From contig CAXXUA010000005.1 in the NCBI GenBank assembly GCA_963663765.2, positions 1,632,001-1,696,000 on the forward strand: a stretch of DNA of 64,000 nucleotides, in the 5' to 3' direction. The position numbers and the translations under genes were made by a program. The stretch is from Candidatus Poribacteria bacterium (GTDB lineage Bacteria; Poribacteria; WGA-4E; WGA-3G). The notes beneath the pieces were generated by a model, which saw nothing but the letters and a program-made list of their open reading frames with translations, ran no database searches and was not told where the DNA came from. Below are positions 1,300-56,891 of this stretch, piece by piece (positions within the stretch are counted from its first letter, which is position 1; the number at the start of each line of letters is the position of its first letter).

Positions 1300-1680
1300 A
1301 CGAGTTGTGCTAAATAACTATATGTTGATCATTGTTTCACATAAGCATCACGTTTTGCAGGTGTCCTTCATAGTTTGAAACGATCTTCAGTCCCGCCAAA
1401 TGCCGTACGGGGAATGCCTTAATGGCATTCATACCGTTGATTTGGCGCATTTGGCGTTGATTTGGTAGGGACGATATGTTTATAGAAAAACGGCATAGCA
1501 CATCCTCTTTAGTCCCGTAGGGACGATATGTTTATAGAAAAACGTCATAGTACATCCTCTTTAGTCCCGACAAATGCCATACGCGCATTTGGCGTTGATT
1601 TGGTAGGGACGATATGTGTGCATTATAAACCTAATATATGTAAAAACTTTAAAAACAATGGGTTAACTGGCACAAGTCGT
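1300..1680 (+). mobile_element. MITE with ACGAGTTGTGC ends carrying GTCCCGTAGGGAC REP units
   Basis: acgagttgtgctaaataac ... gttaactggcacaagtcgt with AATATTA duplicated on both sides; near-identical copy starts at 63695. Confidence 0.75.
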
Positions 1681-1906
1681 AATATTAACAATATTTCTGT
1701 ATATTGACACCTAATGAAGTTTGACAATCAAAATCGGTAGTTGAATTCGTAGGGGTTGGGTTCCCCAACCCGTTGGTTTTTGAGTTTGCGTAGAACATGT
1801 GTGGAAACCACGCACCTACGAATACACAACTTGAACGTCAAAACTCATTAGGACTCTGTGTCCGCAATCTCTCATTTAATCAGTTGCGGCAGGGCACAGA
1901 GACCCG

Positions 1907-2010
1907 GGGAATGCCTAAATGGCATTCATACCGGGGAATGCCAAAAGACATTCATACCCGGGGAATGCCAAAAGGCATTCATACCGTTGATTTCTTGATT
2001 TCTTGATTTC
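1907..2010 (+). repeat. Three nested copies of micro-element A (GGGAATGCC-loop-GGCATTCATACCGTTGATTT)
   Basis: Three hairpin heads followed by three TTGATTTC tails, inside a minus-strand REP (gagacccg|cactac). Confidence 0.8.
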
Positions 2011-2154
2011 GCACTACAATGGAGAGTGGGATGTTTGTGCAAAAACTTTACACACCCCGCACACAGGACCAGGGTTATTCAGTTTTACCCATTTTACCCG
2101 TTTCCTGAGAAAATCGCGACCGGGAGGTCGCTCATACCTGCTTAAGTGTGTAAT

Positions 2155-2326
2155 TATAGTGAAATATACAATTAAGTTTACACCTCTTCTGTAGGCGGGG
2201 AATGCCAATAGGCATTCATACCGTTGATTTCGATCTCCGAATCGCGACTGAACGCCTTGATAGTCGGGAATCGGAGTTCCCTCCTACACCTGAAAGTGTA
2301 AAAATAATTCTAAAATCCACTATAAT
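2155..2326 (+). mobile_element. MITE with TATAGTG...CACTATA ends carrying an inverted REP pair
   Basis: Near-identical copies at ~22750-22956 (+) and ~63496-63692 (-). Confidence 0.75.
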
Positions 2327-2361
2327 ATCAGAATATCCCATTATTAACCCTAAAGTACCCC

Positions 2362-3486
2362 TCAGATCAACTCAACAAAGACCTCATTCGCCAAAAAAAG
2401 TCCGTGCTGAGTAAGACGAAGATATGTCCCGTTCTGCTCTAACACTCCTAAATCAATCCACTTGCCAATTTTATCTCCAAACGCTACTTCAATTTGTTCA
2501 TTGAAACGTCGTGCATAGTCTGCTACACAGATACCCTCGCGCTTCCGAAGTGCCAACATTAAGGTCTCCGCTTTTTCTGCGGCACCCGTAAGATGTTCAG
2601 TCTCCGAGATAGGTTTTTTGTGTTGATTGAGTGCTTCAATGTAAGGTGGGATACCTCGGATATTGGCATAACGGACACCATCAACATACCCACATGCACC
2701 AACACCTAAACCCACATACTCCTGATTATTCCAATAAACAAGGTTGTGTTTCATCTCTCGATTCAGTAGGGCAAAGTTACAGATTTCGTAGTGCAAATAT
2801 CCTTGTAAGGTAAGGGTTTCAATCGTCCATTGGAACATTTCCGCTTCGGTGTCTTCAGAGGGAAGAACCAGTTTACCCGATTTCCATCTGTCATAAAAAG
2901 GTGTAGACTCCTCCATGACCAGATTATATGCAGAGATATGTTCAGGTTCAAGCGAGACCGTCTCCCTTAAGGTAAATTGCCATTGTTCCATTGTTTGATT
3001 TGGCAGTGCAAAGATCAGAACAATGTTGATATTTTCAAAACCACGTTTTCGTGCTAAATGATAACTGTGAAGGAACTCTTTGACAGTATGGATTCTGCCT
3101 AATTGCTGTAATGTCTCATCCTGCATTGCTTGCAAACCGAAGCTTAACCGGTTGACACCAGCACTTATCATCACGTCAAGTTTTTCAATATCAACGGTAT
3201 CAGGATTGCATTCTACTGTGATTTCAACATCAGGACATATTTGGAAATGTTCGTGTATATCAGCAAATAACTGATCTAAAACATTAGCAGAAAGGATAGA
3301 TGGAGTACCGCCGCCGATAAAGATCGTTTTTAATGGAGCGATCTGAGAGGAATATAGGCGCATCTCAGTGCTGAGTATGTTAATATAAACTCTTGCTTGT
3401 TCCTGCTGGTATAAGTAAGTGTTAAAAGCACAATAATAGCACTGCGTCGCACAAAATGGAATGTGGATATAAAGAGAAGAAGGCAT
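2362..3486 (-). CDS. hemW: Radical SAM heme chaperone HemW
   Basis: LYIHIPFCATQCYYC (CxxxCxxC), IGGGTPS, HNLVYW (HNxxYW). Confidence 0.9.
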   Translation of the reverse strand: MPSSLYIHIPFCATQCYYCAFNTYLYQQEQARVYINILSTEMRLYSSQIAPLKTIFIGGGTPSILSANVLDQLFADIHEHFQICPDVEITVECNPDTVDIEKLDVMISAGVNRLSFGLQAMQDETLQQLGRIHTVKEFLHSYHLARKRGFENINIVLIFALPNQTMEQWQFTLRETVSLEPEHISAYNLVMEESTPFYDRWKSGKLVLPSEDTEAEMFQWTIETLTLQGYLHYEICNFALLNREMKHNLVYWNNQEYVGLGVGACGYVDGVRYANIRGIPPYIEALNQHKKPISETEHLTGAAEKAETLMLALRKREGICVADYARRFNEQIEVAFGDKIGKWIDLGVLEQNGTYLRLTQHGLFLANEVFVELI

Positions 3487-3487
3487 C

Positions 3488-4588
3488 TCAATCAAAAGTT
3501 AGTCCTACACGGATGGCAGCCCCTGAATCAGCATAGGAAAATGCATCGTTAATACGGTCAAACGGGAAAGTATCGGAGATAATCTTATGGAACGGATATT
3601 TTTCTTGTGTCCTACACAGAAAATCAAGTGCACGCGGGATCACCCACGGTTCATAAACGATTACACCCCGAATCGCTTTGCTACATCGAACAATATTGCC
3701 AGGGTCAAGCTCGGTTGGAAATCCCAAATTAATGTTTCCAATCCAGAGATAACGTCCTCCCCACCGAAGCATTTCTATACCCTCTGCAAGGACACGCGGA
3801 GAACCAACGAATTCAGATACAAGATCAGCACCAATCCCACCTGTTTGATTCAGAACAAAATCAACACGTTCCCGAAAAGCAAGATCATCTACATTGACCG
3901 TGTAATCAGCACCAAATTCCTCTGCCAGTGTGAGACGTGATGCAAGTCTATCAAGCACGATGACCTTCCCAGCTCCCATTTCTTTCGCTACTGCAGTCGC
4001 ATAAAGACCAAGTCCGCCAGCACCTTGGATAACAACCGTATCCCCAAGTGTAATACCAATTTGATTAAGTCCATAAATAACTTCTGATAAAGCACAATTA
4101 ATCGGAGATACGAGCGAATCTGGCAACTCATCAGGTACTTTAAAGACCCAATGTCCCGCTTTCATGTAGTAGTATTCACCATACGCGCCGTGAAAATGAG
4201 GGTGTTGTTCGCTTGAAACACCAAGCCAATCTCGGTAACGGTTCGGACAACCGGGTTTGCCGTTTAAGCACATCCAACAACGTTGACACGGTTTGAAATA
4301 GGAATAGACGATCCGATCCCCCTCCGTTAGTTGTTGTCCAATGCTGTCAACTATTACATTTCGTCCTAACGCCTCAATGGTACCAATCATTTCATGACCA
4401 AGGACCTGTGGAACGCCGCTTGTTATCTTGGGACCATGTCCACGCCAAAAATGCAAATCAGAACCACAAATATTCGCCATTCGGATCCGCACCAAGATGT
4501 CGTCTGCTGTTACATTAGGCACAGGATATTCACGAATTTCCAATGGTGTTTGGGGTTCTGTGAAGATAGCAACCTTGCCGGTTTTCAT
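3488..4588 (-). CDS. Zinc-binding alcohol dehydrogenase (MDR family)
   Basis: ICGSD, GHE, CxxCxxC, GAGGLG Rossmann motif. Confidence 0.9.
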   Translation of the reverse strand: MKTGKVAIFTEPQTPLEIREYPVPNVTADDILVRIRMANICGSDLHFWRGHGPKITSGVPQVLGHEMIGTIEALGRNVIVDSIGQQLTEGDRIVYSYFKPCQRCWMCLNGKPGCPNRYRDWLGVSSEQHPHFHGAYGEYYYMKAGHWVFKVPDELPDSLVSPINCALSEVIYGLNQIGITLGDTVVIQGAGGLGLYATAVAKEMGAGKVIVLDRLASRLTLAEEFGADYTVNVDDLAFRERVDFVLNQTGGIGADLVSEFVGSPRVLAEGIEMLRWGGRYLWIGNINLGFPTELDPGNIVRCSKAIRGVIVYEPWVIPRALDFLCRTQEKYPFHKIISDTFPFDRINDAFSYADSGAAIRVGLTFD

Positions 4589-4623
4589 GTATAATCACTT
4601 CTGTTTTTGAGTAAGTTCAACCC

Positions 4624-5043
4624 TCAATACTCTCCAAAATTGATAACCTTCCACTGTCCATCGATGTTCTCTGTCGTAATCACAACATTACGAGTATGGG
4701 TTGTTTCGTCATTACGGTTTTTAATCGTCAGTTCGTAGTTGAATGACACGTGCATTACATCCTCAATTTCTGTCGTCGTTTCCTTACCAATTTGTTTATA
4801 GGCAATGTTTGGCATTTCAGGAATAGGATCTGTAGGGGAACGAACTTCATGTAGACGTGCGATTTCGTCATTCAACTTTTCGGTCGCAAGTTCTGCACTT
4901 AACTGAAGGGCTGCTGCTTGATTCGCCAATTTATAGTAATTATATATGAAATCTTCAGTGACTGCTTGCGGAGAATTTCTATTTGAACATGCAATGAATA
5001 TCAGGATGATAAGGAAGAAAAGGAAGGCATATCGGGATTTCAT
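4624..5043 (-). CDS. Hypothetical lipoprotein
   Basis: Hydrophobic signal with IFIAC lipobox; ends GQWKV like NTF2-type small lipoproteins. Confidence 0.7.
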   Translation of the reverse strand: MKSRYAFLFFLIILIFIACSNRNSPQAVTEDFIYNYYKLANQAAALQLSAELATEKLNDEIARLHEVRSPTDPIPEMPNIAYKQIGKETTTEIEDVMHVSFNYELTIKNRNDETTHTRNVVITTENIDGQWKVINFGEY

Positions 5044-5050
5044 GGGGAGG

Positions 5051-6481
5051 TTATTCCCTTTTACGAATCATGGCCACGTTAAAGATGCGACGTTCATAGT
5101 CGTGTGCAGGTCTATTGACAATCTCGCCTAATGCCCACAAAGCAGAAGAACTCCCACCATCAAAATTTATCGCATGTTCTATTCCGAGGTCGTTGAAGAA
5201 ATCAGCCATTTGATAGAGTGTCATGCCTGAACTGTAACTAGATCTTCTGCCATCAACAACGATGAGGAAAAGCTTGTCATCATTAAAACCCAAAGCACTC
5301 CTCGGGTGCCGCTGCGCACCGTTGCTATGACTATAGGCACTACGACCTCCGGTCTGGTGAAACCTAACTAACTCCGGTTCTATTTTACCATCTCGTAATA
5401 GTCGTAAATTGCCGCCAATACCGTTTTGGATCGTCTGCCATTTTTCAGGAGTTAGCGTAATCGTTATTTCGCCTTTGGTAGACTTTCTAATCTTTCTATA
5501 CCATTTGCTACCCAAACGCGGCTCTATCGCAAGAACAACGCCATCTGACGGAATAATACTACTACCACGAGGATTGACAGCAGTGACAACAAAACGACTC
5601 TTGTATTTTCCAGTCAGTGGAAGCTTAAGTTCCTTGAGGATAAATTCATAACAGCGCCGTGTTAAAGTCGTCCGTCCAAAACGAGGGGTGTAAAGCACTA
5701 CCGGCGACAACGAATCACAGATTTGGTTAATCGCATCTATCTTCAACGTATCTTGTCCAACACTAAGTTTTCCATTCAATTGCACTGCATCCAACAGATA
5801 CTCTCCATCAGGTGTAATTCCAAAACTTGTTTCACCCCACGGTGAAGGTGGAGAATAACCCCATCTGTCAAGCAATATCGGTATACTAACAAGTTCACCA
5901 TCCTCAATATAAAGGTTGAACATCATACCGCCGCGACCATAACTATCCCCGCGAATTCCGAAACTTCCGTTAACCCCCGCTAAAGGTTGTAAACCCTTCT
6001 GTCGTAGCCGTCGCGTAGTACCAGTAATCGTTTCACGACCAATAATCTGGGTGTTTGCAAGTTCTACATCAAACTCAAGATTTTTTGAATCACGATCCAT
6101 CTCTGCAACATAAACCGCAGCATGCCCAACCCACCAATACCGATGAAGTTGAAATCCATCAGGCCAACGCTTTCTATCAAGAATATCTATATCTCTAATA
6201 GATTTAGGAAGTGTTTTGTTTGTATCACGCGTTTCAGCTGCAACCGGTTTTTGACGCACTTGCGTAATATCCACTGGATTGGTTTCTGGCGGGGTCTTCT
6301 TAGTCTCAAATTGAATAGAATTTGGAGGCGTATCTATTGAATCAAGCCTTACGGTAGATGGTTGAATCGTTTCGCTTTCAAATAACCGCATAGCATTGAT
6401 GACTAAAATGAATAGTAGAAGCAGAACGCAAATCGTCAGCAGTTTAGGTAATGGACTTCGTTGATGATGTTCTGTATACAT
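5051..6481 (-). CDS. Phosphodiester glycosidase (NAGPA) family protein
   Basis: N-terminal TM helix; VNGSF, RHPRSALG, VVDGR, AINFDGGSS, VNRP motifs; start codon uncertain (ORF open to 6553). Confidence 0.85.
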   Translation of the reverse strand: MYTEHHQRSPLPKLLTICVLLLLFILVINAMRLFESETIQPSTVRLDSIDTPPNSIQFETKKTPPETNPVDITQVRQKPVAAETRDTNKTLPKSIRDIDILDRKRWPDGFQLHRYWWVGHAAVYVAEMDRDSKNLEFDVELANTQIIGRETITGTTRRLRQKGLQPLAGVNGSFGIRGDSYGRGGMMFNLYIEDGELVSIPILLDRWGYSPPSPWGETSFGITPDGEYLLDAVQLNGKLSVGQDTLKIDAINQICDSLSPVVLYTPRFGRTTLTRRCYEFILKELKLPLTGKYKSRFVVTAVNPRGSSIIPSDGVVLAIEPRLGSKWYRKIRKSTKGEITITLTPEKWQTIQNGIGGNLRLLRDGKIEPELVRFHQTGGRSAYSHSNGAQRHPRSALGFNDDKLFLIVVDGRRSSYSSGMTLYQMADFFNDLGIEHAINFDGGSSSALWALGEIVNRPAHDYERRIFNVAMIRKRE

Positions 6482-7017: not shown

Positions 7018-7080
7018 TAAACTTACCTTTAGATGAATACATCGAAACTGCACAAAAGCAATTCCAATGAAACATGACAA

Positions 7081-8415
<1,335 letters not shown>

Positions 8416-8518
8416 TTACGTTGACTAATACGAAAGTTCTATACCATATTCAATCTTTTAGTCACGACTATTCTTCAATAACATTTCCTTGAATCTACAC
8501 ATAAGTCTTACTTTACCG

Positions 8519-9211
8519 TTATTCCTCAATTACTGCATCTGCAAGCAAATAGGCAGATACCAAAAATACCACACTTGATGCTACCAACATCGTCAACCAA
8601 GAAACATCTTCAATCCCACCGGTACCTAATAGAGATACGCTACATTTTGTACCCGCCATAATAATGGGAATCACAAGGGGGAGAAGGATAACAGAAAGCA
8701 AACTCTCACCACCGCTTGTGCTTGTAGACATACCCGCTAACAACACACCGACAGCACTAAACCCAATAGTACCAATACTCAGCACACCAAGCAGTTTTAG
8801 CAATGTCCGCAAAGACACATCATCAAATAAACCAAAGAATTGAAGTGCTATTGGCGTAATCACAATTTCCAGTAGAAATAGTATGATAACATTACTGACA
8901 ACTTTGGACAAATAGACATTTCCGGCATCAACCCCAGTCAATCGTATCCCGTGCAATGCGCCATGTGTACGTTCTAATGTAAAAGAACGATTCAAGGTTA
9001 TAATTCCTGCAAAAACAAATGCCCCCCAAAGCACACTCGCAGCTAATTTGCCAAGTTCTTTCTCTGATTCTGGAAACTGCGGACCAAACCCAAATGCAAA
9101 AATCAGCACAACAAGGATACTAAACACAAAAATTAATGCCAACGTCTCCTTGGCACGAAATTGTAACCCAAGGTCTTTTCGAATCAACGCTGCAATCTGA
9201 CGGAATACCAT
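8519..9211 (-). CDS. ccmB: Heme exporter permease CcmB
   Basis: Six-TM protein, KDL..QFR, LLPLVIP; follows ccmA. Confidence 0.88.
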   Translation of the reverse strand: MVFRQIAALIRKDLGLQFRAKETLALIFVFSILVVLIFAFGFGPQFPESEKELGKLAASVLWGAFVFAGIITLNRSFTLERTHGALHGIRLTGVDAGNVYLSKVVSNVIILFLLEIVITPIALQFFGLFDDVSLRTLLKLLGVLSIGTIGFSAVGVLLAGMSTSTSGGESLLSVILLPLVIPIIMAGTKCSVSLLGTGGIEDVSWLTMLVASSVVFLVSAYLLADAVIEE

Positions 9212-9220
9212 CTACTTGTC

Positions 9221-9949
9221 TCAATATAAAGAACTACTGTTATGAGGCTGTCTTATCAACCGTTCCTCGTACTTTTGCATTAACGCTTCTCCTGAAATCC
9301 CATCTTTTTGTGCTACCTCCTCCAATTCACCATCTAACATAAAAAGATATCTTGTTCCAACATGATATCCCAGTTCAATATTGTGTGTTGTGATGAGTAT
9401 ACCTTTCCCATTTTGCTGTTCTTGTGCGATTCGTTCCTGCACAAAATGTTTCGCAGCCGCGTCAAGACCAGAAAAGGGTTCATCAAGCAACAATATTGAG
9501 GGACAGTGAAGGAGGGCTTTAGCGATCATAAAACGTTGCGTCATGCCACGTGAAAAGATATGAAGCGGTTCATGTAAAAATCGTTGCAAACCAACTTCAT
9601 TCAGCAGTGCACTACAACGGGTTTCCAATTTTTCAACGCCATACATCTGACCGAAAAACTTTAGATTCTGATATGCTGTCAATGTAGGATACGCCAAATG
9701 CTCATGGATAATAACACCTAACATGCTGCGAACTTTTGCATAATCATCAAATGCATCAGTATCATCAATCTCAAGTTTGCCAGATGTCGGTCGGAGGAGA
9801 GTCGCAAGAATTTTGATTAACGTGGTTTTTCCAGCACCATTAGGACCAAAAATCGCAACAACTTCCCCAGAATTTATTGTAAGGTTAACCTCTTTGACAA
9901 TCGTTCTGTGTCCAAAGTTCTTTGTGATCTGAGAAGCAGAAAGGTGCAT
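9221..9949 (-). CDS. ccmA: Heme ABC exporter ATPase CcmA
   Basis: GPNGAGKTT, FSRGM signature, LLLDEPF, TTH. Confidence 0.88.
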   Translation of the reverse strand: MHLSASQITKNFGHRTIVKEVNLTINSGEVVAIFGPNGAGKTTLIKILATLLRPTSGKLEIDDTDAFDDYAKVRSMLGVIIHEHLAYPTLTAYQNLKFFGQMYGVEKLETRCSALLNEVGLQRFLHEPLHIFSRGMTQRFMIAKALLHCPSILLLDEPFSGLDAAAKHFVQERIAQEQQNGKGILITTHNIELGYHVGTRYLFMLDGELEEVAQKDGISGEALMQKYEERLIRQPHNSSSLY

Positions 9950-43241: not shown

Positions 43242-43992
43242 CAAGTTTATTCAGTTTTAAGAGCAGGACTTACGCACCCAACGGTAGGCGTGCTTTGTAA
43301 GCGCGCCGTTGCCAATAGGAGGGAAACCTTGAAATCCCGATTTTCTCACTCAAGGTAGGCGGGGAATGCCTAAACGGCATTCATACCGTTGATTTCTTGA
43401 TTTGATGCTTTGTAAGCGCGCCGTTGCTAATCCTGTGTTTATGACGCACATACAAAACACGCCTACCGGGATGGGGTATTTAGCACTTGGCTTTTTCTTA
43501 AGTTGACACCTATGGGGTCTCTGTGCCCCGCCGCAACTGATTAAATAAGAGATTGCGGAAACAGCACCCATAGGTGTTGTCAACATAAGGAAATATTGTT
43601 AATATCAACCCCATACTCTTCAGTCCCGTAGGGACGATATGTTTATAGATAACGAATACCCTCCCATGTCTTTAGTCCCGTAGGGACGATATGTTTATAG
43701 ATAACGAGTTCCCACCCCTTTTTAGTCCCGTAGGGACGATATGTTTATAGATAACGAATACCCTCCCCATGTCTTTAGTCCCGACAAATGCCATACGCGC
43801 ATTTGGCGTTGATTTGGTAGGGACGATATGTTTATTCTTCTATGCCGTTCCTACGGAACTCAAGAGGGGTAGATAACATATTTCTATAAACATATCGTCC
43901 CTACGGGACTAAAGACATGTACAAGATGGCAATACATAATATTAACGTTATAGTAAACACTCATCAAAAATACCTAAAACTAAATAACCCTG
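43242..43992 (+). mobile_element. Composite CAGGGTTATT-family MITE with GTCCCGTAGGGAC REP cluster and nested inserts
   Basis: 3' part nearly identical to the copies ending at 45964 and 56808; ends aaaactaaataaccctg. Confidence 0.7.
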
Positions 43993-45530: not shown

Positions 45531-45531
45531 A

Positions 45532-45964
45532 CAGGGTTATTTAGTTTTAAAAGTTTTCTGTTATTGAGATGGACTGAAAGTTAATACCCAAATGAGGTCT
45601 TCTAACTGCACCTTACACGTCAATTTTAGATTATTGAAACATGAACATCGGTCTTTAGTCCCGACAAATGCCATACGGGGAATGCCTAAATGGCATTCAT
45701 ACCGTTGATTTGGCGCATTTGGCGTTGATTTGGTAGGGACGATATGTTTATAGATAACGAGTACCCTTCCCAGTTCTTCTTTAGTCCCGTAGGGACGATA
45801 TGTTTATTCTTCTATGCCGTTCCTACGGAACTCAAGAGGGGCAGATAACATTTTTCTATAAACATATCGTCCCTACGGGACTAAAGACATGGACAATATG
45901 GCAACACATAATATTAACGTTATAGTAAACATTCATCAAAAATACCTAAAACTGAATAACCCTG
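45532..45964 (+). mobile_element. CAGGGTTATT-family MITE with 9-bp target duplication
   Basis: gacgttgaa|cagggttatttagtttt ... aaaactgaataaccctg|gacgttgaa. Confidence 0.88.
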
Positions 45965-45968
45965 GACG

Positions 45969-45997
45969 TTGAATATCCTGACCAAATGTGGTATTAT
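45969..45997 (+). promoter_or_regulatory. Promoter upstream of hsdM (second copy at 56813-56841)
   Basis: TTGAAT-17 bp-TATTAT with extended TG; the 56813 copy has TATAAT. Confidence 0.6.
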
Positions 45998-46047
45998 TTT
46001 AAGCAACAATCCCATAATGCCACATTTAGGTGAACCCGTAAGAAGTT

Positions 46048-47655
46048 ATGGCAAAAAAGAATTCAGATACAAACGCAAATAATAACGGTGCAACACTCGG
46101 CTTTGAAGCAACTTTATACCAAGCAGCAGATAAACTTCGCAATAACATAGATGCTGCTGAATACAAGCATGTCGTGTTGGGGTTGATTTTCCTCAAATAT
46201 ATTTCTGATTCCTTTGAGGAAAAGTATAACTTTCTACTGGAAGAGTATTCTAATCCACAGAGTGAATTTTTTGTTGCAGAGAAAACAGACCGTTATACGT
46301 ATGCAGAGGATAGAGATGAATACTTAGCAGAAAACATCTTTTATGTACCAAAGGAAGCGCGCTGGTCACATTTACAGGCAAACGCAAAGCAGCCAGAAAT
46401 TGGGAAACTGATTGATAACGCGATGCATGCAATTGAACAGGAAAACCCACGACTCAAAGGTATACTGCCCAAGAACTACGCACGACCAACGCTTGACAAG
46501 CAAACACTCGGTGAACTTGTTGATCTCATCGGCACAATCGGTTTAGGTGAAGAGGAAAATCGCTCAAAAGATATTTTGGGCAGAGTTTATGAATATTTCC
46601 TCGCACGGTTTGCCAGTGCCGAAGGCAAAAGGGGTGGTCAGTTTTACACCCCTCGCTGTGTCGTACAACTACTTGTTGAAATGCTCTCGCCATATCAAGG
46701 AAGAATTTACGACCCTTGCTGCGGTTCAGGCGGCATGTTTGTCCAAAGTGAGGAATTTGTAGAAGCACACGGTGGACAGCGCGATGATATCTCTATTTAT
46801 GGACAGGAGTCCAACCCAACCACGCGGCAATTGGCACTGATGAACCTCGCTATTAGAGGTATTGAGGCGAATCTCGGACAGGAACATGCCGACAGTTTTC
46901 ACGACGATCAACACCCAGACCTGAAAGTCGACTACATCCTCGCTAATCCACCTTTCAACAGTAGCGACTGGGGCGGTGATCGATTACGTGAAGATAAACG
47001 TTGGGCTTACGGCACACCGCCTACCGGCAACGCTAACTTTGCTTGGGTGCAGCACTTTATCTATCACCTCGCACCAAACGGTATCGCTGGATTTGTGTTA
47101 GCAAACGGTTCTATGAGTACAAATACCGCAACCGAAGGCAAAATTCGCAAGAACATTGTTGAGGCAGACTTAGTGGATTGCATGGTCGCTTTGCCCGGGC
47201 AGCTCTTCTATTCTACCTCTATTCCCGTTTGCCTCTGGTTTATCGCAAGGAACAAAGAAAATCGCCGCTTTCGGAAACGTACAGGTGAAACACTTTTTAT
47301 AGATGCACGCAGATTAGGGAAGATGATTGATCGTGTACATCGTGAGTTAACTACTTCAGAAATGAAACGTATAGCCGAAACCTATCACGCATGGCGAGGG
47401 GATGAAGGCGCAAGTGATTATGACGACGTGCCAGGTTTCTGTAAAACCACCACTCTTGTTGAAGTTCAAGAGCACGCTAACGTTCTGACTCCCGGCCGCT
47501 ACGTCGGCGCAGAAATAGTGGAAGAGGACGACGAACTATTTGAAGATACAATGGTAGACTTGACTGAGAAATTGACCGAACAGATGGCAGAGTCAAGGCG
47601 ATTGGATGATGCTATCGCGAAGAATTTGCAAACTCTCGGATTTGGAAATGGATAA
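46048..47655 (+). CDS. hsdM: Type I R-M methyltransferase
   Basis: [27 protein letters not shown] (m6A), LTPGRYVG. Confidence 0.97.
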
Positions 47656-47664
47656 GAGGAAAAA

Positions 47665-47913
47665 ATGACAGTAAAAGAATTAATGGAATTTCTTGGAAAA
47701 TATCCAGACGATTTACGAGTTGTTGTCAACGGTTATGAGGATGGCTATGACGATATTTTACCAGAACGAATTTCCACCAGAAAAATAGAATTAGACGCAG
47801 GAACGCATGACTGGGAAGGACAACACAACGATCCACCCTATGAAACTGAAACAACAACTGACGATGCCGAAATTGTAGATGCTTTGGTTTTCTATCGCGC
47901 TCCGTATTATTGA
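47665..47913 (+). CDS. Small acidic hypothetical protein
   Basis: AAGGA RBS; MTVKELMEFL..YPDD.RVVVNGYE. Confidence 0.7.
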   Translation: MTVKELMEFLGKYPDDLRVVVNGYEDGYDDILPERISTRKIELDAGTHDWEGQHNDPPYETETTTDDAEIVDALVFYRAPYY

Positions 47914-47960: not shown

Positions 47961-48117
47961 CAGGACTTACGCACCCAACGGTAGGCGCGCTTTGTAGGTG
48001 GGGAATGCCAAAAGGCATTCATACCGTTGATTTGGCGCTGGAAACCGAAAAAATGCTGAAAATTACACCATTTTCGTCATAATTCTTCATCAAATCATGA
48101 AAACTGCGTAAGTCCTG
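47961..48117. mobile_element. MITE with CAGGACTTACGCA ends
   Basis: aaggaa|caggacttacgca ... tgcgtaagtcctg|aaggaa; contains a REP interrupted by micro-element A. Confidence 0.85.
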
Positions 48118-48135: not shown

Positions 48136-49461
48136 ATGGAAACCCACGAAAGTCGGGGCATCCGAAAAAACTCATCGAATCTGGTGAAGCTTGAAGATGT
48201 TGTTCAAATTAATCCTCAGCGAACACTTAACAAAACAAACGAGGCATTCCATCTTGCTATGCGAGATGTTGAAGTATACAGACGGAAAATTACTTCACAT
48301 TCATATAAAGAATTTCGGGGATCTGGCGCACGGTTTCAAAATGGAGATACGCTTTTAGCTCGCATCACGCCTTGCCTTGAAAATGGTAAAACTGTATATG
48401 TAGACTGTCTGAAACCTGATCAAGTTGGGCATGGATCAACTGAGTTTATTGTCCTATCTGGAATTAAAGGTAAAACAGATAATTTGTTTGTATACTATTT
48501 AGCAAGAGATCTGAATTTTCGCACGTTCGCAATTCATTCAATGCGGGGTTCTACAGGACGCCAGCGAGTTGATGCAAATTCGTTACGTTTGTTTGATTTG
48601 TCACTACCTTCTATTGAGGAACAACGCCGCATCGCTCACATCCTCGGTACACTTGACGACAAAATAGAACTCAACCGACAGATGAATGAAACACTGGAAG
48701 CGACAGCACGCGCAATTTTCAAGTCGTGGTTTGTGAACTTTGACCCCGTAAAGGCAAAGATGGAGGGACGCACACCTGTATGCATGGATGCCGATACCGC
48801 TGCCTTATTCCCAACAGTATTCCAAGATTCTCCGCTGGGGAAAATTCCGGAAGGATGGACAGTTGGAACACTTGGCGAGATTGCGAAAAATGTTCGGAGG
48901 AGTGTAAAAGCGAGTGAAATTGAATCTATCGACTGTTTTCTTGGATTAGAACACATGCCAAGGCGTAATATCGCTCTTTCTCAATGGCAAATAGATGCTA
49001 ATATCGCAAGTAGTAAGTATCGTTTCAGAAAAGGTGAAATCCTTTTTGGCAAACTTAATCCTCATTTCCATAAGGTTGGCGTTGCACCTATTGACGGGAT
49101 TTGCTCCACTGACATTTTAGTAATTCAACCTATTGATTCAGAATGGTTTGGTGTTATCTTAAGTCTTGTATCAAGTGATAATTTTGTTGCTTATACTACT
49201 GCATGTTCGAAGGGGACAACATTACCACGTACAAATTGGAATGATATGTCACGGTACGAAATCGCACTACCTAAAACGGAAATAGCTAAAAAATATACTG
49301 AATTCATACGACCTATCGTCAAGAAGATAGTCGAAAATATCCATAAATCTCACACCCTTTCCCAAATCCGAGACACACTGCTGCCAAAACTATTATCAGG
49401 TGAAATTCGTGTAGACGATGCAGTTGAGATATTGGAGGCACAAGATGGTGGACAATCCTAA
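48136..49461 (+). CDS. hsdS: Type I R-M specificity subunit
   Basis: Two TRDs; LPSIEEQRRIA.IL..LDDKIELN, IPEGW, RDTLLPKLLSGE. Confidence 0.96.
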   Translation: METHESRGIRKNSSNLVKLEDVVQINPQRTLNKTNEAFHLAMRDVEVYRRKITSHSYKEFRGSGARFQNGDTLLARITPCLENGKTVYVDCLKPDQVGHGSTEFIVLSGIKGKTDNLFVYYLARDLNFRTFAIHSMRGSTGRQRVDANSLRLFDLSLPSIEEQRRIAHILGTLDDKIELNRQMNETLEATARAIFKSWFVNFDPVKAKMEGRTPVCMDADTAALFPTVFQDSPLGKIPEGWTVGTLGEIAKNVRRSVKASEIESIDCFLGLEHMPRRNIALSQWQIDANIASSKYRFRKGEILFGKLNPHFHKVGVAPIDGICSTDILVIQPIDSEWFGVILSLVSSDNFVAYTTACSKGTTLPRTNWNDMSRYEIALPKTEIAKKYTEFIRPIVKKIVENIHKSHTLSQIRDTLLPKLLSGEIRVDDAVEILEAQDGGQS

Positions 49462-50959
49462 AGTATTTATTTCATATTCTCACGATTCCCCAGAGCATAA
49501 ACAATGGGTAGCGGAACTTGCTGAAAAACTTCGGCACAGTGGCATTGATGCCATACTTGACCAATGGGACCTTGGATTCGGAGATGATATAACACGATTC
49601 ATGGAACGTGGCATTGTAGATGCTGATAGGGTGTTGGTTATTTGTACAGACAAATACGTGAGCAAAGCAAACGCAAATGAGGGTGGTGTTGGCTATGAGC
49701 GGATGATTGTAAACTCGGAACTTGTTCAGAATTTAGGGACAGACAAATTTATTCCTATCATACGTCAGGCATCAGGAAAAGAAAAAACACCCGTATTTTT
49801 AGGTACAAGAGTTTATGCTGACTTTAGAGATGACAGTCAATTTGACGCGGAATGTGAGAAATTAATTCGTGACCTTCACGAAATGCCAATTATAGAGAAG
49901 CCCCCTTTGGGAAAAAATCCGTTCCCTTCTGTAGCTACAGATCCGCAGCTGGTTGATATTCCGAAGCATGTTGAATCTGCCTCCGAAGCTTACAACACAG
50001 CGTCTAAGATAATACGGACAGGAGACACATTTGGATGGCGTGAACTTATCAAGCAAATTCGACCCAACGTATTTAGAACATTAGTCAAATGGCGGCAAGA
50101 TGAGTTGGACGGTCAAAAACCTGAAGGAAAAGAACACTTAGTTCAAGTTGTGGATAAAGTAGTCGAGATTATATCCCCTTTAATGGCTGTTGCATTAGTG
50201 GGAGTTGCATCTGGTAGAGAGGAATTTCGGAATCAAAAATCTTTGATTGATGACTTGCAAAACATTGTAGGATGGAATCCTGCTGGGTACGATGTTTGGA
50301 TACGTCTTCCGAACGCGTTAGGGTACGTGTACCACAGCCTGCATGGTTGCGTCTGTATGAGTACATCTCAGATAGATCTTGCCCTGGGACTTGCGCGGAT
50401 TAAGATTTCTGTTGTTGTCGAAACTCTCGGAACAAGATTTTTTCCCTTATGGGAAATGAGCGAATTTAGAGGTTATCCCATATCAATTAGTGGAACTCGT
50501 GGTGGAAATAGTCTCGAAAGTTGGAACTATTTGTTTAATGCCTATGATAGATGGGATTGGTTAACTTCTATATTTGAGACTGAATCAGAATACCAAACTT
50601 CATTGGTAGCGTATTACATGTTACTCAATATCCATGAATTAGCAACAGTAATCGCTGCAGGTAGTGCCAACACTTTGAAAACAAGTTCAGAATATTGGTT
50701 CACAGTCCCATTGACTTTTTTGTATGGAGATTACGATATTACGAATCGTGCTACTTCTCTATTGCGTCGTAATCCAGAAGTTTTCATGGAATTATGGACA
50801 TGCTTAGATGTTACGCGTGAGCAGATAGAGAACTCCTGGGATGATTGGACAAACTTGGTTGAAAAAGAATTGTCTAAATTAGTGTTTAGCAAACCTGATA
50901 ATCCAAAATCTCTTTTAAATCTTTCTGATATTTATAGACCTCTCTTTGATGGTATGTAA
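49445..50959 (+). CDS. SEFIR/TIR-domain protein with uncharacterised helical C-terminus
   Basis: KVFISYSHDS.EHK.WV..LA..LR..GID..LDQW, GGVGYE; overlaps the hsdS stop. Confidence 0.88.
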   Translation: MVDNPKVFISYSHDSPEHKQWVAELAEKLRHSGIDAILDQWDLGFGDDITRFMERGIVDADRVLVICTDKYVSKANANEGGVGYERMIVNSELVQNLGTDKFIPIIRQASGKEKTPVFLGTRVYADFRDDSQFDAECEKLIRDLHEMPIIEKPPLGKNPFPSVATDPQLVDIPKHVESASEAYNTASKIIRTGDTFGWRELIKQIRPNVFRTLVKWRQDELDGQKPEGKEHLVQVVDKVVEIISPLMAVALVGVASGREEFRNQKSLIDDLQNIVGWNPAGYDVWIRLPNALGYVYHSLHGCVCMSTSQIDLALGLARIKISVVVETLGTRFFPLWEMSEFRGYPISISGTRGGNSLESWNYLFNAYDRWDWLTSIFETESEYQTSLVAYYMLLNIHELATVIAAGSANTLKTSSEYWFTVPLTFLYGDYDITNRATSLLRRNPEVFMELWTCLDVTREQIENSWDDWTNLVEKELSKLVFSKPDNPKSLLNLSDIYRPLFDGM

Positions 50960-51016
50960 GTTTAACCGTTATTGCTTGAAATCTTCGAAAATTATCTAAA
51001 ATTTAGTAACACATAG

Positions 51017-52687
51017 ATGACAAAAACTCCTAAGGTCTTCATTTCATATTCTCACGATTCTCGAGATCACAAGCTGTGGGTGTCCAAGTTCGCTGTACGA
51101 CTTCAGCACAATGATGTTGATATTATACTTGATCAGCGTGTCCCTAACCTAGACGAGAACTCTATGCAATTCATGGAATCTGGTGTTAGAGATGCAGATA
51201 GGATCTTGGTCATTTGCACGGACAGTTACGTGCGAAAGGCAAATGATGGTGAAGATGGTATTGGATACGAGCCGATGATTGTAACTCATAAACTTGTTGA
51301 ATATCTCGGAACTAATAAATTCATCTCTATAATTCGTCAGACATTAACAGAAGAGAAAACACCAGAATTTTTGAGAGACCAGGTTTATATTGACTTTACG
51401 GATGACGAACAATTTGATGCAAAATTTGAGGAACTCCTTCATGAACGCCTCTTAGTCCCACCCATACAAACACCTGATGTCCCACACATTGAGTCATTGA
51501 GCATAAAAAACTACCGCGCGCTACGGGATATAGAATTGAAACAACTTAAACCCCTAACTGTCTTTTTAGGCGCAAACGGTAGCGGTAAATCGACGTTCTT
51601 TGATGTGTTCGCTTTCCTCTCTGAATGTTTCACAGTTGGGTTAGATAGCACATGGAAAAAAAGAGGTGGACTTAAAGAACTGAGGAGTCGCGGCTGTGAT
51701 GGCCCAATTGAATTTGAACTAAAATATCGTGAGAAACCTAAATCGCCAATTATCACATACCATCTGTCTATTGATGAAAACATGGAAGGACCATTTATAA
51801 CCACCGAGTGGTTACAGTGGAGGGTCGGTAGAGGCGGAAAACATGTTCGTTTTCTCAATTTTGAGCGTGGGACAGGGAGTGTTATCCCCGGTGAAAAACC
51901 TGATAAAACAGGAACTCCAATTCATGAACAACTTGCTGATCCATCTACACTTGCTGTCAACATGTTTGGTCAATCTTCACAACACCCCCGCATGAGAGCA
52001 CTCCGCCGTTTTATTACAGATTGGCACCTCTCCTGCCTTTCCACCGACGCCACACGCCAGACCACTGACGACGGACCGCAAAAAAGATTGTCCAAAACAG
52101 GAGACAATCTGACCAATGTTATCCAATATCTACAGGAAAGATACCCAGAACGTTTGGAGAAAATCATATCGCTACTGTCGGACCGAGTGCCACGTTTAGA
52201 AATGGTCGACACAGAATTAATGATAGATGGAAGACGTTTGCTGAAAATTAAAGACGCACCTTTTGAACAACCGATTTTGGCAAAGTTCGCTTCCGACGGC
52301 TCATTGAAGCTGCTATCTTACCTAATCCTATTTCATGATAGACAACCGCCGCAATTCATCGGTATTGAAGAACCTGAGAATTACCTACACCCACGCCTGT
52401 TGACCGGTTTAGTCGGGGACTGTTTTAATGCATCAGCTTCGTCTCAACTTATGATTACCACCCATTCACCTCATTTTGTTAATGAACTTCATCCTGAGGA
52501 TGTGTGGGTTTTGTATCGGGATGAACAAGGTTTCACAGTGTGTAAACGCGCGTCGGAGATGCAGGGAATAGAGCAGCTTTTGGATGCTGGCGCGAAATTA
52601 GGGAAACTCTGGATGGAAGGTTACTTTGAATTCGGTGACCCGTTGACCAATGCAGGAGGTCCAAAGCGAAATCTGCATGCACATTAA
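51017..52687 (+). CDS. SEFIR/TIR domain fused to an AAA_21-type ABC ATPase
   Basis: N-terminal KVFISYSHDS...GIGYE; then IKNYRAL, GANGSGKS, ASDGS, IEEPENYLHP, TTHSP. Confidence 0.9.
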   Translation: MTKTPKVFISYSHDSRDHKLWVSKFAVRLQHNDVDIILDQRVPNLDENSMQFMESGVRDADRILVICTDSYVRKANDGEDGIGYEPMIVTHKLVEYLGTNKFISIIRQTLTEEKTPEFLRDQVYIDFTDDEQFDAKFEELLHERLLVPPIQTPDVPHIESLSIKNYRALRDIELKQLKPLTVFLGANGSGKSTFFDVFAFLSECFTVGLDSTWKKRGGLKELRSRGCDGPIEFELKYREKPKSPIITYHLSIDENMEGPFITTEWLQWRVGRGGKHVRFLNFERGTGSVIPGEKPDKTGTPIHEQLADPSTLAVNMFGQSSQHPRMRALRRFITDWHLSCLSTDATRQTTDDGPQKRLSKTGDNLTNVIQYLQERYPERLEKIISLLSDRVPRLEMVDTELMIDGRRLLKIKDAPFEQPILAKFASDGSLKLLSYLILFHDRQPPQFIGIEEPENYLHPRLLTGLVGDCFNASASSQLMITTHSPHFVNELHPEDVWVLYRDEQGFTVCKRASEMQGIEQLLDAGAKLGKLWMEGYFEFGDPLTNAGGPKRNLHAH

Positions 52688-53300
52688 ATTCTTCTTAGAG
52701 GAGCTTTCTGCTGAGGTAGCATTAAAGCATATCTTGCCCAAGATTCTTTCACCAGATGTCATTTGTATCTTCCATGCATTTGAAGGAAAGGATGACATGC
52801 TCAAGGAATTGCCAAAGTTTATGAAAGGACACCGATGGATACCTAACGACTGGCGACTTATCGTGTTAATTGATGAAGATCGAAGAGACTGTCACGAACT
52901 CAAAGCAAAATTAGAAAAAGCAGCACACGATGCGGGTTTTGTGACAAAATCCAGTGCTGCTCCGAATGAAGACTTTCAAGTCGTCAATCGGTTAGCAATT
53001 GAAGAATTAGAGGCATGGTTTTTTGGAGACGTTGAGGCTTTACATGCAGCTTATCCAAGAATCTCAAAAAACCTCCAAACTCAAGCAAAATATCGTGATC
53101 CCGATGCAATTGGGGGAGGTACATGTGAGGCTTTAGAACATCTACTGAAACAAGCGCACTATTATAAGGGTTATCTACCCAAACGTGAGGTGGCTCAGAA
53201 GATCGCACAACACATGGAACCGAGTCGGAACACATCCAAAAGTTTTCAGGTTTTTGTTAATGGGCTTAAAGCATGTGTAGGAGAAGAATCATTGGTGTAA
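52677..53300 (+). CDS. DUF4276 family protein (TOPRIM-like partner of ABC ATPases)
   Basis: LEE.S, FEGK, VLIDED, EELEAWFFGD, N.S.SF; overlaps the ATPase stop. Confidence 0.82.
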   Translation: MHIKFFLEELSAEVALKHILPKILSPDVICIFHAFEGKDDMLKELPKFMKGHRWIPNDWRLIVLIDEDRRDCHELKAKLEKAAHDAGFVTKSSAAPNEDFQVVNRLAIEELEAWFFGDVEALHAAYPRISKNLQTQAKYRDPDAIGGGTCEALEHLLKQAHYYKGYLPKREVAQKIAQHMEPSRNTSKSFQVFVNGLKACVGEESLV

Positions 53301-53318: not shown

Positions 53319-56300
53319 ATGAATCTCAATACAATTTACGAATCCGACATTGAAGAAGCTGCGCTCAATTGGTTTGCCGACTTGAGTTATACTGTTTTAC
53401 ACGGTCCCGAGATCGCCGCAGACGCGCCCAATGCAGAACGTTCCACTTACAAAGAAGTGGTCTTGACATCGCGCTTACGAGATGCCGTTGCCCGCCTAAA
53501 TCCAACAATACCTGCTGATGCACAGCAAGAAGCAATCCGCAAAGTGCTTAATCCAGATTCTCCCGCTTTAGGGAAAAACAACCGCGCATTTCATCAAATG
53601 CTTATTGACGGTATAGAGGTTGAATATCGGCAAGCTGATGGAACGATACGTGGTGATCGTGTGCGGTTAGTCGATTTTGAAGCACCAGAAAACAACGATT
53701 GGCTTGCAGTCAACCAGTTTACAGTCGTAGGTACAAACGAATGCCGTCCGGACGTTGTGTTATTTATCAACGGACTTCCCTTAGCTATCATAGAACTTAA
53801 AAACCCAACTAACGAGAAAGCAACTACCCTAACAGCATTTCGCCAAATCCAGACCTACAAACAAGAAATTTCGGCACTATTCACCTATAACGAAGCGGTT
53901 GTTATCTCTGATGGATTAGAGGCGCGCATCGGATCATTAACTGCCGACACGGATTGGTTTTTGCCGTGGCGCACAATTGAAGGTGAAGGAGAAGCACCAT
54001 CTACTGAATTAGAGTTAGAAATATTGATTAAAGGTGTTTTTGACAAACGTCGTTTTTTGCGTTATCTTAAACACTTTATCGTCTTTGAAGAAACAGAAAG
54101 CGGAGCAATTGCCAAAAAAATCGCTGGGTATCACCAATTCCATGCTGTTCAAACAGCCGTAGAAGCAACGCTAAAAGCGTCATGTCCTGAAGGCGATCAA
54201 CAGTGCGGTGTCGTCTGGCATACACAAGGTTCTGGCAAAAGCTTAACGATGGCTTTTTACGCTGGCAACATCGTACAACATCCGCAGATGGAAAACCCAA
54301 CCCTTGTCGTCATCACTGACACAAACGACTTAGACGACCAACTGTTTGGCACATTCGCTCGATGCCACCAACTTTTGCGACAAACACCAGAACAAGCAAA
54401 AAATAGACAACACTTACGTGAACTCCTTAAAGTTGCCTCTGGAGGCGTAGTCTTTACTACTGTTCAAAAGTTTTTCACTGAAGGTGAAGAGACCCGTTTT
54501 CCGCAGCTGTCTGATCGACGAAATATCGTGGTAATTGCAGACGAAGCACACCGTAGCCAATACGGCTTTATTGATGGCTTTGCCGCTCACATGCGCGATG
54601 CACTTCCCAATGCCTCTTTTATCGGTTTTACCGGTACACCCATTGAACTCACTGATCGCAATACAGTTGCTGTTTTTGGAGAATACATAAGCACGTATGA
54701 TATCCAGCAGGCGGTTGATGATGGAGCAACCGTGCCAATTTACTACGAGAGTCGCCTCGCAAAAATTGAGCTTGACGAAGACGAAAAACCGTACATTGAC
54801 CCGGAATTCGAGGAACTTACCGAGACGGAGGAGGCAACAGAAAGGGAAAAACTCAAAACCAAATGGGCACAACTTGAGGCGTTGGTGGGAACAGAAAAAC
54901 GCTTGGGACTCATCGCAGATGATATAATTGCACATTTTGAAGAACGGTTAGAGACAATAGATGGTAAAGGTATGATTGTTTGTATGAGCCGCCGTATCTG
55001 CGTTGACCTCTACAATGCAATTATTCAACGCCGTCCAGAGTGGCACAACGATGATGACAAGGAAGGCGAAATAAAGGTCGTCATGACAGGGTCAGCTTCT
55101 GATGACGCATCATGGCAACCGCATATCCGCAACAAAACAAGGCGAGAAACGTTGGCAAATCAATTTAAAAAACCCAATGATCCGTTGAAACTTGTTATTG
55201 TCCGCGATATGTGGCTAACCGGATTTGACGCGCCGAGTCTTCACACTATGTATGTAGACAAACCGATGCGTGGACATGGACTGATGCAAGCAATTGCCCG
55301 CGTTAATCGTGTCTATGGCGATAAACCGGGCGGTTTGATAGTAGATTATATCGGACTTGCCTACCACCTGAAAAACGCATTAAGTAATTATACCAGAAGC
55401 GGTGGGAAAGGAAAGGCTACCCTTGACAAAGCTGAAGCCGTCGCCGTAATGATGGAAAAGCATGAAATCTGCTGTAACTTATTTCACGGATTCGATTGGT
55501 CATTATGGACTACAGGGAAAACGTCAGATCGACTCAAATTGCTACCTGCAGCGCAAGAGCATATCCTGCAACAAAAGGATGGAAAAAAGCGTATACTGGA
55601 AGAAGTTTCTGCTCTAACTAAAGCATTTGCACTGGCTGTCCCACATGAAAAAACAACCGAAATACGCGACGATGTCTCCTTTTTTCAAACGGTAAGAAAA
55701 GTTCTGGCTAAGCCATCGGCTGCAGAAGAAGCACAGTTGGATGCCGCAGACCAAGCAATTAAGCAGTTGGTTTCCAAAGCTGTTATTCCTGAAGGTGTAG
55801 TAGATATATTCTCCGCTGCTGGGCTGGAAAAGCCTGATGTCTCTATTCTCTCCGATGAATTTCTTGCAGAAGTGCAAGACCTTCCCCATAAAAACTTGGC
55901 AGTTGAACTCTTGGAAAAACTCCTCAACGGAGAAATTAAAACGCGCTCACAGAAAAACGTTGTCCAAGGTCGATCATTTGCAGAAATGTTGGAACGATCA
56001 ATCCGTTCCTATCAGAACCGAACAGTTGAAGCGGCACAAGTCATTGAAGAACTTATTGAAATCGCAGGAGTGATGCGTCAAGCGCAAGACCGAGGTGAAA
56101 AATTAGGATTGTCAGAAGAAGAATTAGCATTTTATGATGCTCTTGAAACTAACGATAGTGCAGTCCAAGTACTCGGTGATGAAACACTGCGCAACATCGC
56201 TATTGAACTTGTAGAAACCGTTCGCAAGAGTGTGGCAATTGACTGGACAATGAAAGAAAGTGTACGTGCAAATATACGAAGGTTGGTGAAGCGCATTCTT

Positions 56301-56393
56301 CGCAGACACGGTTACCCGCCTGATAAACAAGAAAAAGCTGCCCAAACTGTTTTAGAACAGACAGAAGTGTTATGTAAAAACTGGGTAATATAG
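53319..56393 (+). CDS. hsdR: Type I R-M restriction subunit
   Basis: RPD...[47 protein letters not shown]. Confidence 0.98.
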
Positions 56394-56415
56394 TACAATA
56401 CCTTCGCCAATAATA

Positions 56416-56808
56416 CAGCGTTATTTAGTTTTAAAAGTTTTCTGTTATTGAGATTTACTGAAAGTTAATACCCAAATGAGGTCTCCTAACTGCACCTTAC
56501 ACATCAATTTTAGATTCTTGAAACATGAACATCGGTCTTTAGTCCCGACAAATGCCACACGCGCATTTGGCGTTGATTTGGTAGGGACGATATGTTTATA
56601 GAAAACGAATACCATCCACAGTTCTTTAGTCCCGTAGGGACGATATGTTTATTCTTCTATGTCGTTCCTACGGAACTCAATTGGGGTGGAAAACATTTTC
56701 TATAAACATATCGTCCCTACGGGACTAAAGACATGGACAATATGGCAACACATAATATTAACGTTATAGTAAACATTCATCAAAAATACCTAAAACTGAA
56801 TAACCCTG
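56416..56808 (+). mobile_element. Copy of the 45532 MITE
   Basis: Colinear and near-identical to 45532-45964, but lacks the micro-element A insert. Confidence 0.88.
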
Positions 56809-56891
56809 GCCGTTGAATATCCTGACCAAATGTGGTATAATTCTGTAATGATTGATAAACAACGCTGCAGCACTTCCCATGGAGATGAACG

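Follow-up and report, generated by a model that had tools for sequence, protein, structure and literature searches.

What do three tightly packed genes do inside a type I restriction-modification (R-M) operon, and do they act as one system? The question is raised by a 64,000-nucleotide (nt) stretch of the genome of a sponge-symbiont Candidatus Poribacteria bacterium (assembly GCA_963663765.2, contig CAXXUA010000005.1, positions 1,632,001 to 1,696,000; the window), in which the hsdS-hsdR gap of such an operon holds three open reading frames (ORFs), ORF1 to ORF3. An earlier note, made from the letters of the window, had read them as two SEFIR/TIR domains, an ABC-type ATPase and a TOPRIM-like DUF4276 protein, encoded by same-strand genes with overlaps at hsdS/ORF1 and ORF2/ORF3. 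The domain reading was confirmed by Pfam and PADLOC, and the genes with both overlaps lie where it had placed them (Table 1). The arrangement, a SEFIR domain fused to an ATPase of the candidate system HEC-01 and paired with an upstream SEFIR protein, is recurrent and apparently undescribed. There is good support for reading the locus as defence cargo in which a bSEFIR-type protein accompanies a SEFIR-tagged HEC-01 pair, and a role of the trio in defence is likely.

HEC-01 (Hma-embedded candidate 01; PADLOC-DB v2) is an ABC ATPase and TOPRIM pair embedded in Hma and restriction-type systems (Payne et al., preprint, 10.1101/2024.01.29.577857). ORF2 and ORF3 match its profiles end to end, residues 156-541 of ORF2 covering positions 2-404 of the 406 in HEC-01A (PDLC04182) and ORF3 matching HEC-01B (PDLC04202), and they share with it the overlap of an ABC ATPase gene and a small TOPRIM (DUF4276) gene inside a restriction-type system. 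The motifs quoted earlier for the ATPase (GANGSGKST, SDGS, IEEPEN and TTHSP) are all found in the ORF2 translation, and the corresponding residues (Walker A G185-T193, S426-S429, E451-N455, T481-S484) are invariant or nearly so. Residues E8, E9, D66, D68 and E109-E112 of ORF3 are retained by at least 95% of 44 homologues. Of these, E8/E9 and D66-x-D68 fit the metal-binding Glu and DxD of TOPRIM domains, roles assigned from PMC12065111 and Payne et al. without structural superposition. DUF4276 has been described as a member of the Toprim superfamily with Glu and DxD residues and equated with Mad4 (PMC12065111). Searches against PDB sequences gave chance matches only for ORF3 and, for the ORF2 ATPase, nothing beyond motif-level matches to PtuA and OLD. 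ORF2 differs from HEC-01 in its extra N-terminal SEFIR domain of ~150 residues and in the SEFIR protein that precedes it, neither of which is described for HEC-01 in the available text of its source.

The SEFIR domains can be compared with bSEFIR, a validated single-gene system that confers defence against phi29 and whose N-terminal SEFIR domain brings about NAD+ depletion (Millman et al., 2022 and Osterman et al., 2024, preprints). PADLOC bSEFIR was matched by residues 8-223 of ORF1, with only profile positions 33-250 of 412 aligned. The solved Bacillus cereus SEFIR domain (PDB 5y8e) was matched by the ORF1-family profile with an E-value of 1.2e-33, by the ORF1 model with a VIA Z of 14.3 (root-mean-square deviation, rmsd, 2.7 over 134 residues) and by the SEFIR domain of ORF2 with an E-value of 6.7e-21. 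The SEFIR domains of ORF1 and ORF2 are 54% identical, and the first 121 nt of ORF2 are 71% identical to the start of ORF1. Millman et al. assigned bSEFIR by an HHsearch match to SEFIR stronger than that to TIR; by methods other than theirs, TIR_2 scored above SEFIR in a Pfam hmmscan (83.1 vs 59.4 bits), and against solved structures the E-value for SEFIR was over 25 orders of magnitude better than for any TIR.

The Glu claimed in the motifs GGVGYE (ORF1) and DGIGYE (ORF2) is present in both translations. All 61 SEFIR domains examined in the ORF1 family keep this residue, E85, as do at least 97% of 120 ORF2 relatives; in an AlphaFold2 (AF2) model (pLDDT 81.3) E85 lies in helix 81-97, which follows strand C (62-68). 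The helix after strand C is presumably the site of the catalytic Glu of TIR NADases, to which E85 may be equivalent.

It is very unlikely that the SEFIR domains serve solely as adaptors, as in IL-17R and Act1, docking a sensor (ORF1) onto the ATPase without NAD+ cleavage and leaving the TOPRIM nuclease as the sole effector. Animal SEFIR domains interact homotypically, as does the one in the B. cereus crystal structure, and the D40A mutation of bSEFIR, at a predicted interface, abolished defence; among the fold matches found here is the IL-17RA/RB/ACT1 helical assembly (Z 11.9), and in one locus (L055, described below) a REC-like input domain occupies the same slot of the ATPase. Later papers, however, report NAD+ depletion by SEFIR and a SEFIR defence that is overcome by NARP1, and the invariance of E85 in both families is what an enzyme would show, although residues at an interface can be invariant too.

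The fusion proved not to be unique to the source assembly. Of 7989 database relatives of ORF2, the best 120 (73-100% identical) have both SEFIR and AAA_21 without exception; among these, the genome scans (79 loci, some of them duplicates) and a survey of 176 Poribacteria species genomes, the fused matches with a phylum-level name all come from Poribacteria. The full-length fusion is present in 30/176 of the surveyed genomes, which by their assigned labels span two families and four genera. An ESM Atlas search with ORF2 returned unfused ATPase clusters of ~400 amino acids (aa) only, which says little about the rarity of the fusion because the atlas includes only clusters of at least 50 members.

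An ORF1-family gene stands less than 700 nt upstream of 29 of the 30 fused ATPases (26 full length, 3 reduced to the C-terminal helical domain) vs 1/49 of the unfused ones, where the ORF1 copy is broken; within 6 kb, 7/49 unfused ATPases have such a neighbour. The same pairing was seen in the 22 distinct fetched loci with a fused ATPase, window excluded (L001-L006, L008, L009, L011, L015, L017, L019, L028, L046, L048, L053, L060-L062, L069, L073, and L010 with L044, a pair taken to be a single locus divided between two contigs): an ORF1-family gene lies directly upstream in 21, L019 being the exception.

Residues ~168-504 of ORF1 gave no match in Pfam, PADLOC or NCBIfam. Modelled alone with AF2, this C-terminal domain consists entirely of helices (pLDDT 79.9, pTM 0.85). 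A wide fold search with VIA-align gave at best Z 6.6 (rmsd 2.9 over 94 residues), Foldseek against PDB and a search of BFVD stayed at background level (best E 0.068 and 0.1, respectively), and an ESM Atlas search by features returned unnamed clusters (best score 0.79); fold searches with the full-length ORF1 model were swamped by matches to the SEFIR/TIR domain. A profile search at E <= 0.001 collected 421 representatives (50% identity) of the helical-domain family, and 90 of the best 150 were scanned for domains. Most carry SEFIR/TIR_2 at the N terminus; five carry a protein kinase domain (P0269, P0303, P0347, P0359, P0385) and three a ParA/AAA_31 domain (P0252, P0340, P0371), one (P0267) has a LexA DNA-binding domain ahead of SEFIR and the helical domain, and several have no other domain. 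Since the helical domain is constant while output-type N-termini are swapped, a role as sensor or regulator is suggested. In other Poribacteria, stand-alone ORF1-family genes were also seen beside other restriction systems (L065, L070, L072, L066 at ~7040-9700 on the - strand, and L078 at 1640-5356), the neighbours being a ResIII/RE_endonuc enzyme with an N6_N4 methylase or an Eco57I-type enzyme.

The helical-domain-only genes encode 347-351 aa with a conserved new N-terminus. Two lie directly upstream of a fused ATPase (L001, L008), which is then the sole source of a SEFIR domain, and a third (L059) is at a contig end. Their ratio of nonsynonymous to synonymous substitution rates is ~0.28, vs 0.17-0.22 for the same region of full-length genes, and they are therefore under purifying selection. 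In L007 and L029, the two fetched loci in which an ORF1-family gene directly precedes a SEFIR-less ATPase, ORF1 is frameshifted, and because the unfused ATPase of L007 is nested among fused ones in a quick tree, loss of its SEFIR domain is indicated. The ORF1 copy of L073 is frameshifted as well.

On this evidence the trio is tentatively read as one composite abortive-infection (anti-phage) module, carried as cargo in the type I R-M operon and coupled by SEFIR-SEFIR contacts. This reading is preferred because of the near-obligate pairing, the selected helical-only variants, and the paired decay of ORF1 and the ATPase SEFIR domain. The gene layout was also counted for joint action: the genes share a strand, stops and starts overlap, only 57 nt separate ORF1 from ORF2, and no terminator-like site was found on the + strand in the hsdS-to-hsdR gaps.

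The biochemical steps, protein contacts and trigger that we infer are as follows. ORF2 and ORF3 would be a HEC-01 pair in which the ABC ATPase acts as sensor and as a scaffold restraining the putative TOPRIM nuclease ORF3, by analogy with PARIS, Gabija and OLD. The SEFIR domains of ORF2 and ORF1 would cleave NAD+ and need homotypic assembly to do so, as bSEFIR and TIR biology suggest, and the helical domain of ORF1 would be a sensing or regulatory part. A trigger would lead the ATPase oligomer and ORF1 to gather SEFIR domains; NAD+ would be depleted and the nuclease set free. Complex prediction for ORF2 with the ORF1 helical domain, run without controls, gave scores of 0.00 and 0.00 and bears neither way on binding.

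It is quite possible, if on balance doubtful, that the gap instead holds two independent systems that happen to stand side by side in a defence hot spot and do not interact: ORF1, as a bSEFIR-type NADase encoded by one gene, and a HEC-01 pair that has gained a SEFIR effector. bSEFIR was published as a single-protein system, and cargo genes embedded in type I R-M loci are often mutually unrelated (10.1101/2024.01.29.577857). Several of the observations that would fit such neighbours weigh against the composite module at the same time. ORF1 can probably act alone, because 35/73 ORF1-family matches have no such ATPase within 6 kb and because in L051 (2259-6993) three tandem ORF1-family genes, with SEFIR and helical domain, fill the hsdS-hsdR gap without ATPase or DUF4276. 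HEC-01 pairs without SEFIR are common, and solitary pairs were seen in Poribacteria, cyanobacteria, Chloroflexota, Elusimicrobiota and Sumerlaeota. Other points weigh against the composite module only. A fused ATPase in L019/G119 adjoins no ORF1 and no DUF4276 gene. The co-occurrence counts overstate independence, because they come from a single phylum, mostly from one syntenic site and from related genomes, and the quick ATPase tree places the fused forms in just 2-3 clades. The co-occurrence may also simply reflect how the fusion arose, if the ATPase SEFIR domain was copied from its neighbour. The equivalence of E85 with the TIR catalytic Glu is presumed from the model, because profile alignments of SEFIR to TIR structures end at residue ~78, short of E85, and offer no residue-level alignment. 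In its only published test, in E. coli, HEC-01 itself did not protect against the phages used (10.1101/2024.01.29.577857). Independent neighbours, however, do not account well for an ORF1-family gene directly upstream of nearly every fused but almost no unfused ATPase, for selected helical-domain-only genes adjoining fused ATPases, or for the broken ORF1 copies directly ahead of SEFIR-less ATPases in L007 and L029.

Further N-terminal additions occur on the same ATPase clade. In L055 (9363-11030; the same as L085 2163-3833; genome G022) the ATPase carries a REC-like N-terminal domain and lies downstream of HATPase_c_3/HATPase_c (GHKL/histidine-kinase-like) genes; the evidence for REC is weak (Pfam Response_reg 27.4 bits, cut-off 30.2; CheY-like PDB match E 0.025). 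L054 (7200-10477) and L071 (7191-10297) have a separate REC-like protein at that place, and an ORF1-family gene lies upstream of these arrangements. In G154 (L084, G154:C1:479500-486500), HsdS (Methylase_S) and the HEC-01A ATPase form one 853-aa ORF (2221-4782, - strand), with hsdM before and DUF4276 after it; this single case could reflect a stop-codon change or a sequencing error. In G096, G131, G172 and G112, hsdS and the ATPase are in frame with one TAG between them. The REC-like and HsdS additions point to an exchangeable N-terminal slot and were counted for the composite module. A bolder extension, which we regard as unlikely, is that the N terminus of this clade is an exchangeable docking port at which matched domain pairs wire an ATPase-TOPRIM executioner to an upstream sensor. 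The SEFIR version would then be a three-protein complex with two effectors, NAD+ depletion and a nuclease, and a trigger sensed by the helical domain. Under the same unlikely proposal, SEFIR on the ATPase would pair with a SEFIR protein encoded upstream and a REC-like domain with a histidine-kinase-like one, and in a third form HsdS itself would take that place.

The position of the trio had led to the proposal of a back-up system triggered by R-M inhibition, that is, a module that guards the R-M enzyme as PrrC or PARIS would and is set off once an anti-restriction protein (Ocr, ArdA) blocks HsdMSR. This was not supported and is improbable. hsdS upstream and hsdR downstream flank the fusion in 14/22 fetched loci; in the other 8/22 (L001, L005, L006, L008, L009, L017, L046, L048) hsdR is absent, mostly together with hsdM and hsdS, L046 retaining fragments of hsdS and hsdR only. 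The guard reading is weakened because the trio stays intact through this loss. The same ATPase clade moreover occurs far from any hsd gene (L020-L027, L030-L041), and the two parts, ORF1-family genes and HEC-01 pairs, are each found on their own as well. The reading is kept alive by the overlap of the hsdS stop with the ORF1 start, conserved in at least six loci (L002, L003, L004, L011, L015, L028), and by the HsdS-ATPase ORF of G154 with the four in-frame genomes; HEC-01 pairs also recur in the hsdS-hsdR slot, and PARIS is reported to sense Ocr.

The trio was also compared with its closest known systems. PARIS (AriA, an ABC ATPase, and AriB, a DUF4435 TOPRIM protein), Gabija and OLD share the logic of an ABC ATPase with a TOPRIM nuclease, and the legend of a PARIS tree (Nature, 2024) lists DUF4276 among the partners of AAA_15/21 defence ATPases; ORF3, however, is DUF4276 and not DUF4435, and SEFIR/TIR domains are not described in the available accounts of PARIS, Gabija or OLD. 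Membership in PARIS was rejected, the 11 PADLOC matches of ORF3 at E <= 0.01 being all to HEC-01 and none to AriB, with DUF4276 its only Pfam match. AriA was rejected as the identity of ORF2, its profiles matching at 8.3e-24 and 1.2e-23 (83 bits vs 506 for HEC-01A). PrrC/RloC and RloA/RloB-type cargo likewise occupy gaps between hsd genes and have an ABC-type ATPase. ORF2 differs from PrrC and RloC in having no C-terminal anticodon-nuclease domain, the candidate nuclease here being a separate TOPRIM protein, and in belonging to a module that survives hsd loss; the HEC-01A profile reaches residue 541 of 556 and leaves no room for a C-terminal nuclease domain, so that PrrC was rejected, although a weak match to the PrrC ATPase domain is possible beyond the best 25 of the 138 PADLOC matches of ORF2. 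In MADS, a mad3-like ATPase is likewise accompanied by a DUF4276 partner (PMC12065111); membership was rejected on the scores of mad3 (PADLOC 6.5e-21; NCBIfam MAD3, NF047739, 108 bits vs a 420-bit cut-off). The likeness to bSEFIR lies in the N-terminal domain of ORF1 and in the frequency with which ORF1-family genes stand alone, and the difference in a helical C-terminal domain without a family, the partial profile match and the second SEFIR domain on the neighbouring ATPase.

The claim that the architecture is unnamed thus held for the whole in the libraries and literature searched and failed for its halves, both of which are catalogued, as HEC-01 and bSEFIR. In the literature searched, which did not extend to the supplementary system tables of the Payne and Millman preprints that might list fusions, no paper was found to describe a link between SEFIR and either an ABC ATPase or HEC-01.

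The island is flanked in Poribacteria by a sulfatase gene on one side and a STAS/DUF6807 pair on the other. The likely start of ORF1 is an ATG with GGAGG 6 nt before it, and overlaps the hsdS stop by 17 nt; ORF3 overlaps ORF2 by 11 or 38 nt, depending on the start chosen, and ends 18 nt ahead of hsdR. The small orf82 between hsdM and hsdS gave no match in Pfam, PADLOC or NCBIfam and has equivalents at the same position in related loci (59-88% identity). Several relatives have a 137-aa ORF before hsdS, and there the open frame that contains hsdS begins with an extra N-terminal stretch; the two may be a HEPN/nucleotidyltransferase toxin-antitoxin pair. The Schlafen AlbA_2/HATPase_c_4 protein accompanies the hsd locus, in most related loci between hsdM and hsdS or after hsdR; its PADLOC matches, to the PNTD regions of proteins associated with Argonaute, are weak.

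A ~468-nt direct repeat brackets the entire hsdM-to-hsdR cassette at a spacing of ~10.85 kb. Its copies are 92-100% identical in pieces (blastn, 87% over 468 nt) and contain a promoter-like site and short palindromic elements (GTCCCGTAGGGAC...), the latter also found near 43360-43990 and 48000-48038. Loss of hsd genes through the long repeat was rejected, because the trio would go too and because none of the other fetched loci proved to have this repeat. Elsewhere in the source genome (G000) there are more SEFIR-like ORFs (348 and 353 aa), along with a second ATPase of the same general kind as that of ORF2 (473 aa, 40% identical).

Table 1. Coordinates of the operon, its cargo and its surroundings; positions refer to the window unless a locus (L) or contig (C) is named.
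Feature	Position	Strand or placement	Evidence
Direct repeat, left copy, ~468 nt	45531-45998	begins right after sulfatase stop	repeat search, blastn
hsdM, type I methyltransferase, 535 aa, intact	46048-47655	+	Pfam N6_Mtase 8.6e-109, HsdM_N 6.6e-26; PADLOC MTase_I 2.1e-217
orf82, small conserved ORF between hsdM and hsdS	47665-47913	+	no family
hsdS, specificity subunit, 441 aa, full length	48136-49461	+	Pfam Methylase_S, 2 stretches; PADLOC Specificity_I 1.1e-99
ORF1	49445-50959	+	Pfam TIR_2 2.9e-23, SEFIR 6.4e-16
ORF1, N-terminal SEFIR domain (residues 1-~150) and linker	49445-49945	+	PADLOC bSEFIR 7.9e-80
ORF1, C-terminal all-helical domain, ~337 aa, putative sensor or regulator	49946-50959	+	AF2 model
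ORF2	51017-52687	+	Pfam TIR_2 4.2e-15, SEFIR 8.4e-11, then AAA_21 6.3e-24, AAA_15 2.9e-21
ORF2, N-terminal SEFIR domain	51017-51481	+	PADLOC bSEFIR 4e-54, residues 1-154
ORF2, ABC-type ATPase, HEC-01A	51482-52687	+	PADLOC HEC-01A 1.9e-152
ORF3, putative TOPRIM-type nuclease, HEC-01B	52677-53300 (alternative start 52650)	+	Pfam DUF4276 1e-30; PADLOC HEC-01B 3.8e-84
hsdR, restriction subunit, 1024 aa, intact	53319-56393	+	Pfam HSDR_N, SWI2_SNF2, T1RH-like_C; PADLOC REase_I 1138 bits
Direct repeat, right copy	56415-56842	begins right after hsdR stop	repeat search, blastn
Schlafen AlbA_2/HATPase_c_4 protein, 585 aa	56892-58649	+	Pfam
137-aa ORF and extended hsdS frame	L007 4211-6308, L019 5920-7543, L059 3947-6011, L073 3938-6011, L044 59-2090
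Further SEFIR-like ORFs and second ATPase of G000	C3:457622-458125, C3:131263-131673, C6:79955-81307

If the locus holds two separate systems, it is an ordinary defence-island neighbourhood. The helical domain of ORF1 defines a sizeable unclassified family, joined to SEFIR/TIR, protein kinase or ParA-like domains, that merits a name. If the trio is one composite module, bacterial SEFIR domains would act between two proteins, as in animal IL-17 signalling. HEC-01 is a widespread catalogued candidate without a phenotype or known trigger, and a natural version that has a partner protein, and whose ATPase carries a domain with an output that can be measured as loss of NAD+, would offer a handle on what activates ABC ATPase-TOPRIM modules of this class.

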